Assembly: GCA_043800755.1 (NCBI GenBank)
Contig: JAZDMQ010000074.1
Coordinates: 1 to 20,605 of the forward strand
Source of the DNA: a bacterium
GTDB lineage: Bacteria > Methylomirabilota > Methylomirabilia > CAVQYV01
DNA length: 20,605 nucleotides
Direction: 5' to 3'
The translations under genes and the position numbers were made by a program. The number at the start of each line of letters is the position of its first letter. The first letter of the stretch is position 1. This document shows positions 1,308-20,605 of this stretch, one piece after another. Under the pieces are notes generated by a model. That model had not been told where the DNA came from and made no database searches. It worked only from the letters and a program-made list of their open reading frames with translations.

Positions 1308-1691
1308 TCAACCCTGCTCCTGTTCTTCTCTCTCTTCTTTTTCTATCGCCCTCAATTCCTCTTCTTCCAATCCGAAATAATGACCAATTTCGTGGAGCAA
1401 TACCTCCCTGACCTGCTCTCTCATCTCCGCCTCATTCCGGCAGTACCTCTCGATGGGACCCTGGTAGATGGTAATCTGATCGGGCAGGACATTTCCATAC
1501 CAGGTGCCCCGTTCCTTAAGCGGATACCCATGATACAGGCCCAACAGGCTGCTTCTCCGGCCACCTCCCCTCCTGCTTGGGGGAGGCCAGTCCTCCACCA
1601 GGATCTCCACATTTTCCAGCCTCCTGCGAAATTCCCCCGGGAGATCCCGCAGGGCCTGAACAATCAATTGTTGAAAGCGTCTGCGGTCCAT
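1308..1691 (-). CDS. Minimal zincin-like metallopeptidase family protein
   Basis: HEIGHYFG (HExxH), LLGLYHGYP, LPDQITIYQGP; 127 aa. Confidence 0.9.
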   Translation of the reverse strand: MDRRRFQQLIVQALRDLPGEFRRRLENVEILVEDWPPPSRRGGGRRSSLLGLYHGYPLKERGTWYGNVLPDQITIYQGPIERYCRNEAEMREQVREVLLHEIGHYFGLEEEELRAIEKEEREEQEQG

Positions 1692-1694
1692 CCT

Positions 1695-2513
1695 TCATGA
1701 CTTCTCGTCCGAATCGAGGTCAAGGCGCATGTGGTCGTAGGCCGCCAGGACCCGGGTCCCCAACTCCTGCTCGATGCTGGCGGCCAGCTCCCAGGGCTTG
1801 GCCCTCAGCATGGTCATGCCGAAGTGGGTGAGGATGGCCAATTTGGGCCTCCGCGCCCGGATGATCCTTTTGGCGTCTTCCAGGCAGAGATGATCGATCT
1901 CCCGACTCTGCAGCAAGACCACATTGAGGAGCAGGACATCCTCCTCGCCCTCCACCTCCTCCAGCTCGGGGAAATAGCGGGTATCGGAAATCAGGGAGAT
2001 GGTCTTCCCACCCCCCTTGAACCTCAAGGCATAGTTCTCCACCGGATGGAGCAGGCGCAGGGGGACCTCGATGGAGAGCCCACCCATCTGAAAATGCGAG
2101 CCCTCCCGCAAGACCTCCATCCGCTCCACATAGGATCGCAAGTATCCAAAGATGACCCCATCGTTTTCATAGGCATCCTGGGGGGCCAGGACAGCCCCCT
2201 TGGGGTGAAAGCCCCCTTCGGTCATGGCCTCAATCATCACATTGACATCTGCCGAGTGGTCGAGGTGCTTGTGGGTTAGCACAATCGCCGAGAGATGGGT
2301 GGGGTCGAGCCCCAGCCGTTTGGAGGTCAGGTGGACGAGCGCGCCCGGGCCCGGGTCCACATGGATCTGGCTCCCGTCCAGGCTCATCCAGATCCCCCCC
2401 GAGGCCCTGACCTGTTTGAAGACCACGATCCTCGCCCCTCCGGTGCCGAGAAAGATCATCTCCGGGGAGGAGGTGCCTCTTCGCTCCTCATTGTCCTCAG
2501 GGGCTCTCTTCAT
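1695..2513 (-). CDS. MBL-fold metallo-hydrolase (PhnP/RNase Z-like)
   Basis: FLGTGG, VDPGPG, THKHLDH (HxHxDH), ISDT, HL, LTHF, AAYD; 4-nt ATGA overlap with the upstream HAD gene. Confidence 0.9.
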   Translation of the reverse strand: MKRAPEDNEERRGTSSPEMIFLGTGGARIVVFKQVRASGGIWMSLDGSQIHVDPGPGALVHLTSKRLGLDPTHLSAIVLTHKHLDHSADVNVMIEAMTEGGFHPKGAVLAPQDAYENDGVIFGYLRSYVERMEVLREGSHFQMGGLSIEVPLRLLHPVENYALRFKGGGKTISLISDTRYFPELEEVEGEEDVLLLNVVLLQSREIDHLCLEDAKRIIRARRPKLAILTHFGMTMLRAKPWELAASIEQELGTRVLAAYDHMRLDLDSDEKS

Positions 2514-16982: not shown

Positions 16983-17029
16983 ATGTTAAAAGTAAAGACC
17001 TGACCCCATTTTCTTTCCATTTTCTTTCC
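16983..17029. repeat. Half of a GGGGTCAGGTCT-type inverted-repeat element followed by an 11-bp tandem duplication
   Basis: ATGTTAAAAGTAAAGACCTGACCCC (16983-17007), then CCATTTTCTTT twice (17006-17027). Confidence 0.45.
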
Positions 17030-17031
17030 TG

Positions 17032-17111
17032 GATGCCTGCTACGTGGCCCCCTGGCGGTTACCACGACCGGACTTGCACCGGTTAGCAGGCGATGGCTTG
17101 GCAGGGCACAC
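17032..17111 (-). mobile_element. Group II intron 5'-end fragment, copy 1 (~80 nt)
   Basis: Minus strand begins GTGTGCCCTGCC (GUGYG), has the ACCGG-TGCAAGT-CCGGT T-loop hairpin and a GCCTGCT/AGCAGGC closing stem; near-identical copy at 19874-19952; no RT ORF or domain V seen. Confidence 0.7.
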
Positions 17112-17138
17112 CAGCGAGTTGTTAGGCAGGCCCAGGCC

Positions 17139-17789
17139 CTACTGCGCGGCAGTGTCTGGATAAGCGTCTGAGGGAGAGATCGCCTGCTTCGCCAGAGCGA
17201 AGTCGTCAAGGATGTCCTTAACCCTCCCTGAAAGCTCAATGTCTCCTGAGGTCGCGCGATCGGTCCAGTAGGTGCCCTTGATGGGAGCTTCTTTCTTCGA
17301 TGGTACATAGAGCAGCATAGCGCCGTGATGGATCGGACTGCCGCCCCTCACTGCAATGGAAGGCTCGTTCCTATACACGGCGGCAATGGTGGAGGATCCG
17401 TCGGCAGCGGGGGTGACTTGGGCTCCGAGAAGATGAGAAACCGACTGACTTGTCATCAGCCTCATCCGCAGGGAAGTAAGAGTTTGGTGGACTGCAAGGA
17501 AGCCTTCAAGGGGCGACTCCGCACTAGCTGTTCCGGGGCTTGTCCAAGTGGTTCTCAATGACGCGCGCCATGTGCCCGAGATATCTGGAATCTTGACAAG
17601 CCAGCCTTTGAAGGCTGGAAGCTTCCAGAGCCAACGATCAAACGCCACCGCTATGATGACGGCAATGCCATTGGCGAGGGAGGGGTAGCGGAGCCAAGTG
17701 CTCTCCACGGCTACGCCATTGGCTATTAGCACGACCCCGCAGACTGCAAAGGCCAGGTAGACGAGAGCGGTGGTTTGAGTCTTGTTCAT
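17139..17789 (-). CDS. cap15: CBASS Cap15-like effector (2 TM + beta-barrel, SMODS-associated)
   Basis: Two N-terminal hydrophobic helices, FDRWLWK, PDISGTW, VHQTL, TSQSVS, YRNEP, SPIHHGA, GTYWTDRATSG; ATG 17789 with GAGGT RBS overlapping the cyclase stop. Confidence 0.88.
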   Translation of the reverse strand: MNKTQTTALVYLAFAVCGVVLIANGVAVESTWLRYPSLANGIAVIIAVAFDRWLWKLPAFKGWLVKIPDISGTWRASLRTTWTSPGTASAESPLEGFLAVHQTLTSLRMRLMTSQSVSHLLGAQVTPAADGSSTIAAVYRNEPSIAVRGGSPIHHGAMLLYVPSKKEAPIKGTYWTDRATSGDIELSGRVKDILDDFALAKQAISPSDAYPDTAAQ

Positions 17790-17796
17790 GGCTACC

Positions 17797-18687
17797 TCAC
17801 TCGAAGCCAACGTAGTCCCAGGCTGCTGAGATGAATTCGTGGGCCTGCTGGCGGGTCCAAGGCTGACCAGTTCGGAACAGGTACTTCATCTTGTTGACTT
17901 CTCGCCATTCAGTGCAGCCCGAGTCTGCGCTGGTGTTGTTAAAGAGATGGGCAAGAGCCCAGCGGACATCGGAGGTATAGGTGCTATGGCCGAATCCTTC
18001 GTTGGGGACATTCCAAAGGAGGCATTCGATGAGGAAGGAGGGTGCTTCGCCAGCTGAGGCGTAGCCTTCATCGGCCATCTTGTTGCCCAAACGCTTGAGT
18101 ATCCTCACGATGGCCTTGAACCTTCGGCCTGTGGCGTCATTCTTCTGTACTCCGTTGGCGTAATTCTGCTCCGGCCAATTTACAGTGAGGGAACCGCCAT
18201 CCGGCAGGAATGCGGCTCCCTTGAGGTATGAACCATACTTGCGATAGTAGCGGTACTCGAAAGCCGGGAGCACGTCCGCGTCTACCCGGTAGGTGTTGTG
18301 GTGGATGTCGAACGCCTTCTTGCCGCGTCGGACGGAGCCGGCACCGAAGTAGGAGACAAGTGCAGCTTGAACATCGCCCTTGAAGTCTGCATAGGGATAT
18401 GATGCGGGAGTGGTGAAATCAAAGTCGGCGGGCGTCGTGCCGTCGGGGATGTGGTAGAAGAAGCTTTCGGTGCACATGATGCATACGTCGACATCGCTGT
18501 CGGCCCGGACGTTCGTGCGGTTGCGATAAGAGCCTTGTGGGAAAACGACCCGCGACCTGGAGGCCAAATCAGCCCACGAGTCCGCTGCTTTCCTTATGGC
18601 TCTCTCGGCGTTGTCGCACTTGTCCTGCTCGGTCTTGCCGGGCGGCTGAGCCCAGCTTGCGAAAGTAGGTTCCCAGTCTGGTGACAC
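17797..18687 (-). CDS. cdnE: cGAS/DncV-like nucleotidyltransferase, CdnE-like (CBASS cyclase)
   Basis: WAQPP, QGSYRNRTNVRADSDVDV (GS...DxD), VDADVLPA, NWPEQNYANGVQKN, RFKAIVRILK, PSFLIECLLWNVP, EVNKMKYLF...QPW; GTG start after AGGGGAGG. Confidence 0.93.
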   Translation of the reverse strand: MSPDWEPTFASWAQPPGKTEQDKCDNAERAIRKAADSWADLASRSRVVFPQGSYRNRTNVRADSDVDVCIMCTESFFYHIPDGTTPADFDFTTPASYPYADFKGDVQAALVSYFGAGSVRRGKKAFDIHHNTYRVDADVLPAFEYRYYRKYGSYLKGAAFLPDGGSLTVNWPEQNYANGVQKNDATGRRFKAIVRILKRLGNKMADEGYASAGEAPSFLIECLLWNVPNEGFGHSTYTSDVRWALAHLFNNTSADSGCTEWREVNKMKYLFRTGQPWTRQQAHEFISAAWDYVGFE

Positions 18688-19199
18688 GGCCCCCTCCCCT
18701 ATTCTTGACGCTGTCGGCCTGCCTAACTTCTATTTTCTGTTGCTGCGATAAAACCAAGCCGATTTAAGCGGGAACGGGCTTTCACTGTGAATTGTGCAAC
18801 CCAAGAACGTCGCATAATGGAAACTACCTGCAGCATAAGAGTTCGATTGGCAATGTTCTATCGCGGACCTCTAAGTATCAATCTTGTTATCTATTCCCCA
18901 TGGCAAATGCCCGTTCTTGGTCAAGCCCGGTGGGCCTTTAGCCTATTCTTCCACATCCCTCCGTAAACACAAAAGGCACCGTGATCTCGGTCTGAAAGAT
19001 CTATCCGGTGCCTTCATTCCCACCTCCCGCAGAGACGCACACCCTATATGTGAAGCTGATAGAAAAATCAGCCTCATGCGATGGTGAATTGAGCAGGTTG
19101 GTTCTATCCTTTTTCTGCTATTTACTATCATGCACGCTTCTTTGTCAAATGATTTCTGCCTGTCGCTCCCGCGAAGGGATTGAAAATCCTGTGCGTGAG

Positions 19200-19284
19200 T
19201 GTAACCAAAACTGTAACCGTCAGAACCGAAAAAGGGACAGCTTTTCCTCACCTATTCCAACATGGCCTTTGTAACTCGTTGATT
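19200..19284 (+). promoter_or_regulatory. Integrase arm-type repeats plus IHF site (att-arm architecture)
   Basis: TGTAACC at 19200-19206 and 19212-19218; TAACTCGTTGATT (19272-19284) matches the IHF consensus YAANNNNTTGATW. Confidence 0.55.
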
Positions 19285-19330
19285 TCTAACTATTCGTAAA
19301 TGATGGAAAACCGCCTGATTGCATGAATTC

Positions 19331-19377
19331 GACTGAAAATCCTGGTGTGCGCAGTTCGATTCTGCGGGGCGGCACCA
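19331..19377 (+). pseudogene. tRNA-Phe(GAA) 3' remnant, probable att site of an integrative element
   Basis: GA-CTGAAAA-TCCTG anticodon loop and 3' stem, T-arm CGCAG-TTCGATT-CTGCG, GGGCGGC-ACCA end; D-arm and 5' anticodon stem missing. Confidence 0.85.
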
Positions 19378-19415
19378 GTTATTTTCACGGAGTTAACAAC
19401 AGGTCATTCACTTCG

Positions 19416-19441
19416 GCCATCCGTTCTCGGATGGCTTTTTT
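19416..19441 (+). terminator. Rho-independent terminator
   Basis: GCCATCCG-TTCT-CGGATGGC followed by TTTTTT. Confidence 0.8.
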
Positions 19442-19512
19442 GTCCTTCCAACCCAAATGGTGCCTAAGCCCTCCTTTTACCCGTATGGGACGAAGCACCA
19501 TGCCTTCCTGCC

Positions 19513-19830
19513 TCATCTACCCTCTTCGATCTGCCCCCTCCGTCTCCACTCCCGGTCATAGATCTTCCCGTTCTTGATGTACCCCCTCGGCTCTCCGTCA
19601 CGATCGTAGACCCGCTCGCCCCTGATCTGATACTTTAGCCGCCAGTCCTCATCATAAACCCGATCCCCCTGGATTCTTCCCTTGGGCTCCCAATTCCGGT
19701 CATAGATTTTGCCATCGCTCACGTGGGCCTTGAGGTTCCAATCTCGATCATAGATACGGAGATCCCCTGCCCAGGAGAGGGAGTTCCACAGAATGGTGAT
19801 GAGGAAAAGAATGAGGATTGCCTTCGTCAT
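19513..19830 (-). CDS. Secreted small protein with five 16-aa (I/V)YD.(D/N/E)(W/G) repeats (beta-flower-like)
   Basis: Signal peptide ending SWA-GD; repeats LRIYDRDWNLKAHVSD / GKIYDRNWEPKGRIQG / DRVYDEDWRLKYQIRG / ERVYDRDGEPRGYIKN / GKIYDREWRRRGQIEE. Confidence 0.8.
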   Translation of the reverse strand: MTKAILILFLITILWNSLSWAGDLRIYDRDWNLKAHVSDGKIYDRNWEPKGRIQGDRVYDEDWRLKYQIRGERVYDRDGEPRGYIKNGKIYDREWRRRGQIEEGR

Positions 19831-19873
19831 CTTTCCTATTGCTCCTTCGGCCTATGGCTGCACCCCGCTGTGA

Positions 19874-19952
19874 GATGCCTGCTACGTGGCCCCTGGCGGT
19901 TACCACAACCGGACTTGCGCCGGTGAGCAGACGATGACTTGGCAGGGCACAC
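19874..19952 (-). mobile_element. Group II intron 5'-end fragment, copy 2
   Basis: Differs from copy 1 by 5 substitutions and 1 indel; starts GTGTGCCCTGCC on the minus strand. Confidence 0.7.
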
Positions 19953-19968
19953 CAACCCGGTGTTATGC
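19953..19968 (-). other. Truncated attC-like left end
   Basis: Minus strand GCATAAC + ACCGGGTTG, 38 nt after the R-M gene stop, then the intron fragment; same 9-nt offset as in copy 1. Confidence 0.55.
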
Positions 19969-20006: not shown

Positions 20007-20605
20007 CTACTGGTCATCCGTGCCTTGTTCTGGTTTGGTTATTCCGCTCTGTTCAGGGTTGATATATTCCAGAAATGCGCTATTCGCGCCGTAGTATGTT
20101 TTCTCGTAGTCTCTCCGCTTTTTCAAACTATCCTTCATCGCTTCAGCGATTGCCTTGAGTGCGTCTATTTCATCCTCTGGCGGCATGGATATCTGTATCT
20201 GCCTAACGTCTTTAGGGTATATATGAGCGGTTTGTCCCCTGATACAACGCTGAAGCGCCTGATATCCGTCATCCGTCCTGAGATACATGAGAACGTAATA
20301 AGGGTCTATCTTTTCTGGATTTACCCTAATGATCATTACTTCGGCAACACACGCTACTTTGCTTTGATATTCTTCTGGAATGTAATCTACGATGTCCAAC
20401 TCCGCGCCAATGTATCTAGGATGATGCGCCGCTGTTCCGACGACAATATCTCCAACTTGAACCCTCTTGACTATGTGTTTTTGAAAGAAATCTTCAGTTA
20501 CAGAGGCTCGGTCATTCAAACTCCATTCAATTCCGCGATTGGTGATGTTCCGAAATTTGATGATGCGTACCCCCGAATCAGTATAAGCATTACGAGGCGG
20601 CGTCG
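20007..20605 (-). CDS. Restriction-modification specificity (HsdS/TRD-like) domain protein, C-terminal part; 5' end outside the window
   Basis: Frame open to the right edge: TPPRNAYTDSGVRIIKFRNITNRGIEW...VQVGDIVV...IIRVN.EKIDPYYVLMYLRT..G...RGQTAHIYPKDVRQIQISMPP; visibly AT-richer than flanking genes. Confidence 0.8.
   Translation of the reverse strand, partial: TPPRNAYTDSGVRIIKFRNITNRGIEWSLNDRASVTEDFFQKHIVKRVQVGDIVVGTAAHHPRYIGAELDIVDYIPEEYQSKVACVAEVMIIRVNPEKIDPYYVLMYLRTDDGYQALQRCIRGQTAHIYPKDVRQIQISMPPEDEIDALKAIAEAMKDSLKKRRDYEKTYYGANSAFLEYINPEQSGITKPEQGTDDQ

Follow-up and report, generated by a model that had tools for sequence, protein, structure and literature searches.

Sense-oriented 5' fragments of an attC-targeting group II intron lineage behind two defence loci of a Methylomirabilota genome

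The stretch analysed here (the window) is the whole of contig JAZDMQ010000074.1 of assembly GCA_043800755.1, 20,605 nucleotides (nt) from a bacterium of the Methylomirabilota; it is contig C42 of the source genome (G000), a metagenome-assembled genome (MAG) of 2.43 Mb in 166 contigs. At its right end, read along the minus strand, lie in order a restriction-modification (R-M) gene, a box of the type found in the 5' arm of integron attC sites, a short repeat (stub A), a gene for a beta-flower (Bflower) repeat protein, an R' box, the two genes of a cyclic oligonucleotide-based antiphage signalling system (CBASS), a second box and a second copy of the repeat (stub B). Coordinates are given in table 1. 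About 800 nt between the Bflower gene and the GTTAGGC box hold no convincing genes and carry tRNA-Phe fragments on the opposite strand. The gene upstream of stub A matches the PADLOC models MTase_II (1.3e-24) and Specificity_I (7.7e-20) and, weakly, Pfam Methylase_S (0.035). The pair upstream of stub B is a type I CBASS of cyclase plus two-transmembrane (2TM) effector, in which the CD-NTase adjoins an effector with a cyclic-nucleotide receptor domain. An earlier, sequence-only reading had named these upstream genes as R-M gene and CBASS effector, with which PADLOC and Pfam agree, and had described two copies of the repeat, each preceded by an R''-like box and exactly 9 nt; the sequence reads as it described.

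Both copies begin GTGTGCCCTGCC on the minus strand, with lengths of 79 nt (A) and 83 nt (B). They are 86-93% identical over 82-85 nt, a likeness not due to chance given the BLAST E-value of 1.7e-28. A third copy of 61 nt (C; G000:C78:20585-20645) directly follows a zinc-ribbon NUDIX gene, the stop codon of which falls within the box of this copy, TTCTAAC. BLAST with five longer relatives and our own covariance model R1 both give a total of three copies in G000; the intron positions recovered by local BLAST are 1-83, 1-81 and 1-62 only, and neither method finds any part of the intron besides the three 5' stubs. Two more copies (D and E) are in G001, a 10-contig MAG of the NC10 phylum related to G000 at the family level, and are the only matches of a pattern scan of the genome contigs for the 5' motif. 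Scanning metagenomes with a pattern for the first ~56 nt of the intron gave at least 123 matches in at least 121 stretches; other loci carry L-numbers, and all metagenome counts of loci, flanks and junctions below are drawn from the matches listed in that scan. Placed on a model of the longer family members, A ends at position 81, B at 83 (retaining CAG) and C at 61. The claim that A and B are cut at the same base thus stands in part: the insertion point relative to the box is identical and the pairwise similarity stops together, at ...AGCAGGCATC, but the ends are +81 and +83.

Each stub starts with GTGTG and continues with the 5' strand of domain I; two hairpins and the stem that closes them make a small three-way junction, and the second hairpin shows a compensatory UA-to-CG change across the family. 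Folded with their flanks, the stubs are no more stable than shuffled sequences (z-scores -0.65 to +0.47), and a promoter and terminator scan found nothing at them, the counts being at shuffle level. Neither nhmmer nor BLAST extends stub A into 19834..19873.

Table 1. Features at the right end of the window.
Feature	Position	Strand	Evidence or remark
R-M specificity/target recognition domain (TRD)-type gene, 3' part	20007..20603	-	Open reading frame (ORF); PADLOC; truncated by contig end
R''-type box GCATAAC, attC 5' arm, cassette A	19962..19968	-	Sequence; position conserved in lineage flanks
9-nt spacer + L'' part ACCGGGTTG, cassette A	19953..19961	-	Last 5 nt = intron-binding site 1 (IBS1); last base = putative extrahelical base
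Stub A, intron +1 to ~+81	19874..19952	-	RF02003 27.4 bits; model R1 89.5 bits; nhmmer end 81
Possible degenerate continuation of stub A, short hairpin, weak	19834..19873	-	Sub-threshold Rfam alignment only
Beta-flower repeat protein, 105 aa	19513..19830	-	Pfam Bflower 7e-9; gene after stub A
R' box GTTAGGC, CBASS cassette start	18721..18727	-	Crossover between G18727 and T18726
CBASS CD-NTase (oligonucleotide cyclase)	17797..18687	-	PADLOC Cyclase 4.3e-123
CBASS 2TM effector, Cap15-like	17139..17810	-	PADLOC Effector 2TM 2.2e-59; Pfam Cap15_CD_rec 1e-14
R'' box GCCTAAC, attC 5' arm, CBASS cassette	17121..17127	-	Sequence; exact complement of R' box
9-nt spacer + L'' part AACTCGCTG, CBASS cassette	17112..17120	-	IBS1 = CGCTG; G17112 = last exon base
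Stub B, intron +1 to +83	17029..17111	-	RF02003 32.0 bits; model R1 102.6 bits; nhmmer end 83

By sequence, the repeats represent the 5' terminus of group II intron domain I. They carry GTGTG at +1 (the group II 5' end being GUGYG) and match the Rfam model RF02003 (group-II-D1D4-4) with E-values of 7.3e-4 (B) and 0.011 (A). A copy in G001 that is 93% identical and runs to about +162 scores 57.8 bits, above the gathering score, as do 11 of 17 metagenome loci (55.6-87.5 bits). The suggestion of a group II 5' fragment was therefore borne out by the Rfam models, with sub-threshold matches in the window and matches well above threshold in longer relatives. The window has no match to domain V (D5; RF00029) at E <= 1 and no reverse transcriptase (RT)/maturase gene; since it lacks D5, and since G000 contains no other intron part, it holds fragments and not introns. 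In G001 likewise the covariance model finds two 5' copies, and RF00029 has no match. The relatives, however, continue into complete introns with D5/D6 and RT, which identifies the window copies as 5'-terminal group II fragments. In L076, L039 and L083, D5/D6 (RF00029, 43.6-50.4 bits) follows downstream at a distance of about 0.8 or 1.9 kb, and domain V/VI and 3' splice-site features are also present in L047. Complete introns of ~1.93-2.0 kb with an ORF of ~432 aa occur in L039, L052, L057, L083 and L084, and complete ORF-less introns of ~0.8 kb (~780-860 nt) in L047, L076, L095 and L109; their domain V/VI reads GAGCCGTATGAGGG...ACGTACGGTTC and their 3' end ...GACCCTAC. The ORF of L057 encodes a group II RT/maturase (TIGR04416, 442 bits, cut-off 300), whose nearest solved structures are IIC-type RTs (E 8e-66). 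With at least 121 metagenome loci, the lineage is abundant in the environment.

Two relatives deserve separate mention. At L060:2466-3992 the closest relative of the window copies, a 479-nt stub, is followed by a 509-aa ORF with motifs, judged by eye, like those of N6-adenine DNA methyltransferases; it would be another defence-type gene beside the intron. The closest plasmid-borne intron-encoded protein (IEP), 61% identical, is on a Leptospira interrogans plasmid (L153; NZ_CP098371.1, 32282-33580). Its intron is related in domain I and shares the 3' end ...GACCCTAC, but differs at the 5' end and lacks an attC-type flank; attC homing is therefore specific to the sub-lineage.

The sequence in front of the intron is strongly conserved. 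Among 101 distinct 24-nt flanks, the AAC of the box is at -12..-10 in 69, another 16 have it displaced by 1 nt, and the exact motif RYYYAAC occupies -16..-10 in 42; the flanks are thus not random, and the attC-type target proposed by the sequence-only reading is a conserved property of the lineage. The box of B (GCCTAAC) fits RYYYAAC, and that of A (GCATAAC) is one position off this consensus. The exon ends in TG in 72/101 flanks and in TC in 16/101; GCTG or GTTG is the ending in 49/101, and the IBS1 consensus is CGCTG. The five bases at the exon end covary with the loop of a hairpin that lies ~257-261 nt inside the intron, the exon-binding site 1 (EBS1). The pair types include CGCTG with CAGCG, CGCTC with GAGCG, GCATG with CATGC, CACTG with CAGTG, GCCTG with CAGGC, GGTTG with CAGCC and CACTC with GAGTG. 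All five positions pair in 21 of 33 long copies and at least four in 30, the three poor cases being due to a one-column shift in the alignment; the mean of 4.36 compares with 3.23 ± 0.15 in 2000 shuffles (shuffle maximum 3.88). The EBS1 region has been lost from the window stubs and the pairing is seen in relatives: CAGCG of L060 and L119 pairs with CGCTG of B, and CAGCC of L115 with GGTTG of A, a positive outcome for the comparison of EBS1 with the 9-nt flank that the sequence-only reading had suggested.

When the exons of L039, L076 and L095 are rejoined, they form imperfect inverted repeats with R''/R' and L''/L' arms, and the 5' arm has one extra base, which is exon position -1. In attC sites, extrahelical bases on the R''-L'' arm guide the choice of strand by the integrase. 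We infer from these folds that the intron inserts 9 nt after R'', immediately 3' of the bulged L'' base. Unoccupied attC sites with the motif ...GCTG/CAGCGG... lie between co-oriented genes at G000:C46:1863-1923 and at L014:3161-3212 in G001, the latter reading GCATAAC CACCG GCTG/CAGCGG ... GTTAGAC. The first belongs to a small cassette array (G000:C46:1140-2545) with intact attC sites at 1863-1923 and, longer, at ~2391-2545. The array adjoins a 363-aa minus-strand ORF at the contig start and holds a methyltransferase-like ORF and a second ORF, so that ordinary attC sites are present in G000.

The CBASS operon is a true cassette. Its GTTAGGC, which precedes the cyclase start by 33 nt, is exactly complementary to the R'' box GCCTAAC after the effector, as expected of a cassette linearised within its own attC; copy D of G001 likewise has GTTAGAC ~23 nt before its gene and GTCTAAC after it. 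Moreover, a 2462-nt contig from a marine-metagenome run (X1) matches exactly the segment 17112-18727 (29 differences) and bears no likeness to the window beyond either end of it. One end of this match coincides with the last exon base in front of the intron, the other with the G of G/TTAGGC. The sequence that precedes the CBASS R' box shows no attC fold. The start of cassette A lies beyond the contig end, which falls inside the R-M gene.

As for orientation, the intron points the same way as the cassette genes (top, or sense, strand), as the sequence-only reading had it. Copies A-D, the four NC10 copies whose upstream gene can be read, each stand behind a gene that is oriented as they are. For 60 distinct metagenome loci that have at least 400 nt upstream, we considered the longest open frame to end no more than 120 nt from the intron; it clearly shares the strand of the intron in 35, lies on the other strand in eight and is ambiguous in 17. 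The genes in front of the NC10 copies are R-M (A), CBASS (B), NUDIX/PDC-S07 (C), PDC-S31/DUF2971-like (D) and unknown (E).

On sequence features the lineage does not look like class C, and a placement among the class C-attC introns, which the sequence-only reading had cited, was not supported. Class C introns are shorter and have CGC in D5. The present lineage has an AGC triad in D5, a ribozyme RNA of ~650-780 nt (complete ORF-less members measuring ~780-860 nt), a covarying 5-bp IBS1 and no upstream hairpin, and for these reasons we do not file it under IIC-attC; yet the best PDB matches of its IEP are IIC RTs.

Comparison with known systems gives the following picture. Group IIC-attC introns (S.ma.I2 and relatives) occupy the bottom strand, antisense to cassette genes; their insertion point, TTGT/T in R'', is in the attC hairpin or behind it, and their IBS1 has 3-4 bp (PMC3001079, PMC7923331). 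The lineage resembles them in being mobile and attC-specific, in lacking an endonuclease domain, in occurring also in integrase-less clusters and in leaving truncated copies (PMC3001079, PMC7923331). It differs in its sense orientation, in a site 9 nt after R'' with no hairpin upstream, and in the IBS1 CGCTG with 5 bp covarying. A single class C intron has been noted in the attC top strand (PMC7923331), and shares with the lineage both strand and cassette orientation; compared by description only, it differs from the present lineage, which is abundant in the environment and in its features does not resemble class C. Closer in some respects are UHB.I2 and H.ha.F1/F2, group IIB introns linked to integrons or clusters of attC sites lacking an integrase (CALINs) in hypersaline samples (PMC7923331). 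They too are non-IIC, in cassette orientation and beside attC sites, in arrays rich in toxin-antitoxin or defence-type genes. UHB.I2, however, is described as lying just downstream of attC with poorly conserved exons, whereas the present lineage inserts within the 5' arm, always at one base and behind a conserved flank. The H.ha.F1/F2 fragments are 5'-truncated 3' pieces (PMC7923331), and the remnants here are 5' pieces. Defence systems are already known as integron cassettes (bioRxiv 10.1101/2024.07.02.601719), a likeness to the loci studied here. Those cassettes are described from mobile integrons of clinical bacteria with working attC sites; ours are in an NC10-type MAG in which no integrase was found, and their attC sites are broken by stubs. 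Our searches of the openly accessible literature, which took in passages of PMC3552965 and left subscription journals outside, turned up no sense-strand, non-IIC lineage homing to attC.

How the intron came to be represented by stubs can be approached from the truncation points. We aligned 128 entries to a 400-position profile of domain I: 29 are cut by the contig end, 21 reach the profile end, six have internal deletions and 72 stop early, the last group representing 60 distinct junctions. These fall at positions 40-70 (nine), 71-95 (27), 96-130 (eight), 131-175 (10) and 176-300 (six), and truncated copies from the NC10 phylum end at 49, 61, 81, 83, 84, 84, 87, 122 and 162. The 5' stubs proposed by the sequence-only reading do recur, in that early stops outnumber long copies and the ends cluster around +80-90 instead of being random. 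Because the truncation ends of the whole family cluster there, stopping just after the closing stem is a family-wide property and not a peculiarity of A and B. Two sets of loci with an identical 30-nt flank (L040, L067, L116, L129, L137, L143 versus L049, L073, L124) carry two forms of the intron, one of them without model positions ~79-168 of domain I; this internal deletion begins where many stubs end.

The explanation that we consider probable is that the stubs are decayed 5' remnants of sense-strand attC-homing introns, mostly inert, which left the attC sites broken. An active intron ribonucleoprotein would have recognised the attC 5' arm of each cassette by EBS1-IBS1, the site being chosen at least partly through this 5-bp pairing and probably also through reading of the R'' box or the bulge. 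The intron would then have reverse-spliced into the sense strand and been copied into DNA. Two intron variants with different EBS1 sequences may have inserted independently, one in the CBASS attC and the other in the R-M attC. A and B appear to be separate insertions because each is ~96% identical to L060, because they are less alike mutually and because their flanks fit different EBS1 sequences. Later deletions from about +81/+83 would have removed the ribozyme core, any RT gene and the attC 3' arm, the intron 5' end surviving because the adjoining gene was under selection. An attC 3' arm was looked for after stubs A, B and C and was not found; a putative 3'-arm match at +184 in relatives turned out to be intron sequence. 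Since no such arm follows either window stub, locking of the cassettes is a reasonable reading. With the L'/R' arm lost, the bottom strand could not fold into an integrase substrate, and the defence cassettes would therefore be fixed; the stubs probably leave the CBASS and R-M cassettes unable to move.

Several observations weigh against this explanation. The RF02003 matches in the window are below the gathering score of 49, and the top-strand assignment comes from gene orientation and the arm with the extra base, not from experiment. No EBS2-IBS2 covariation was found between the box and any column of domain I. The window has no attC 3' arm and, by a crude attC scan, no intact attC, and in G000 the integron integrase model TIGR02249 gives only partial matches at the level of Xer (at most 91 bits, cut-off 265), stronger IntI-like pieces being found elsewhere, in G001 and G049. 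Without 3' arm, intact attC or integrase, "integron" here means a remnant or CALIN-like stretch. Ascertainment bias accounts for part of the surplus of 5' stubs relative to 3' pieces, since the pattern required an intact first ~56 nt and 3' remnants were invisible to the metagenome scan; a phylum-wide BLAST with the full intron scored two candidates per genome, so that no census of 5' versus 3' pieces is possible from it. Neutral decay predicts no cluster of truncation points, but 27/60 junctions are at 71-95 and 5/9 NC10-phylum copies end at 81-87, and some stub junctions are common to loci with different 5' exons. Finally, among the contigs listed from four metagenome runs none bridges 17029 or the whole stretch, many continuing as intron past 17029, where stub B stops (loose ends), and a MAG of 166 contigs with a high-copy repeat leaves the joins of stub and downstream DNA less secure.

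The clustered ends and shared junctions are what one would expect if the 5' module of ~80-90 nt were retained for a function, a possibility that we regard as doubtful but which is the strongest competitor. The module could serve as a compact, self-folding three-way junction that is tolerated or used in a composite attC-like site, as a handle by which recombination between intron copies carries attC ends to new genes, or as a structure in the 3' untranslated region of a defence operon. Junctions of stub and downstream sequence are common across different exons in L033/L085/L117, L058/L077/L136, G001-D/L099 and L159/L160. Furthermore, about ten loci (L053, L086, L088, L089, L091, L092, L098, L127, L135 and L149) form a sub-lineage of the form R''-N9-stub(89)-~95 conserved nt-G/TTRRRY, in which the 5' exons differ and similarity stops at the crossover point. 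In L091 and L092 the stub-bearing unit recurs after consecutive genes, so that the stub is within each attC-like site of small arrays. Stubs also keep 96% of the hairpin pairs, compared with 98.8% in long copies. However, pair conservation may be inherited from recently active introns, and the hairpin base may be a deletion hot spot, for which selection is not needed. Minimum-free-energy folding of the composite sites gives no R''/R' hairpin on either strand, the stubs of the window and of C78 are followed by neither an R' arm nor a shared downstream sequence, and the promoter and terminator scan is likewise against a role of the stubs. The metagenomic arrays with a stub in every attC-like site nevertheless keep alive, at the level of sequence, the idea of cassette capture. 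A tentative version would be that an undescribed, abundant, non-class-C lineage homes to the attC sense strand precisely at the extrahelical base and that its ~80-90-nt stub became a building block of attC-like sites in some arrays. Such a module could spread onto new genes via recombination between intron copies. In the model of Leon & Roy, as summarised in PMC7923331, introns at an attC and by a gene recombine, joining gene and attC, and recombination between intron copies could do the same here. Their model, however, invokes antisense IIC introns at terminators and ends in splicing and reverse transcription with no intron piece left, and as described there it does not predict the stub-bearing attC-like arrays seen here.

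These arrays have further features of their own. Gene-by-gene stub-bearing units were observed in L091, L092, L086 and L089; in their ~95-nt part the R' arm is directly repeated and there is a perfect hairpin of 7 bp, and L092 has a large palindromic insertion in the second hairpin of the stub. In G001, stub D is immediately followed by a ~55-nt motif that starts CAGCACGCTTTTCACTTTTCC and includes an imperfect palindrome. This motif is present at G001:C4:604493-604550 and G001:C8:630273-630330 (L154, L155). At its other G001 location it comes after a further sequence that has an intron motif of the GGTGAAAGTCC type, and in L099 its first 21 nt follow a stub truncated at the same position.

The flank could also be a plain homing site, with RYYYAAC acting as IBS2 for an EBS2-like GUUAGCC, and the genes could belong to an island unrelated to integrons. 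Long copies do have a conserved GTTAGCC ~45 nt upstream of the EBS1 loop, the place expected of EBS2; G000 has no integrase that we could find, and the nearby tRNA-Phe fragment suggests an integrative island. We nevertheless consider this quite unlikely, because variants of GTTAGCC have no compensating changes in the exon, rejoined exons fold as attC-like hairpins, unoccupied sites are canonical attC sites between co-oriented genes, exact R' complements stand at the starts of cassettes B and D, and the X1 contig matches only from the R' G to exon base -1. The two readings are in any case compatible, since an EBS2 mimicking R' would explain attC targeting. Least probable of all, the stubs could be assembly artefacts across a high-copy intron repeat, as the fragmentation of G000, the missing bridge at 17029 and the enormous coverage of the intron 5' end in run X1 (summed depth 14803, versus 17 at the CBASS genes) might suggest, but a repeat-mediated join would still need a truncated copy beside the downstream DNA, the G001 stubs lie inside contigs of 660 kb and 436 kb, and the 60 distinct truncation junctions come from independent metagenome contigs.

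Other elements were observed in the same material. The tRNA-Phe remains of the window (plus strand, 19331-19390, 19170-19200 and 19415-19436) include a 3' part from the anticodon loop to CCA, then a terminator-like hairpin, and a second anticodon-arm-like piece 150 nt upstream of the 3' part; ARAGORN finds no whole tRNA in the window. In metagenome contigs, tRNA-Phe 5' halves of other organisms begin at the start of the window's fragment. The fragment lies between the two cassettes and looks like what remains of the distal att site of an integrative island. A group II intron different from this lineage is at a contig end of G000 (L009; G000:C108:126079-126481), where RF01998 (38.3 bits) and RF00029 (38.4 bits) match ~240 nt apart, so that it is ORF-less or partial. 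A 341-aa reverse transcriptase outside this intron lineage (L017; G000:C31:6077-6715; RVT_1, 84.5 bits) has a weak RT-14 RNA match alongside (RF02921, 33 bits, sub-threshold) and is possibly a retron or defence RT. In L072, a 78-nt stub is followed ~180 nt downstream by a DUF3800-III RNA on the other strand (RF02962, 110 bits; 1682-1789, plus strand).

How cassettes gain or lose attC sites is a long-standing question, and the group II introns that target attC are otherwise known as antisense class C elements, one top-strand class C case being mentioned. The lineage would be a second kind of attC-homing intron, sense-oriented and placed at the bulged base that integrases use for strand choice. 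If the stubs are decayed remnants, the window would offer a concrete route to the chromosomal fixation of defence cassettes, including CBASS, restriction-modification and candidate systems. The stub-bearing attC-like arrays of metagenomes provide a testable link between introns and the evolution of attC sites, and the full-length and ORF-less members identified here can be used for mobility assays. Should the stub prove to be a building block of such sites, group II introns would be tied directly to how cassettes, those for phage defence included, gain, keep and lose their recombination sites.

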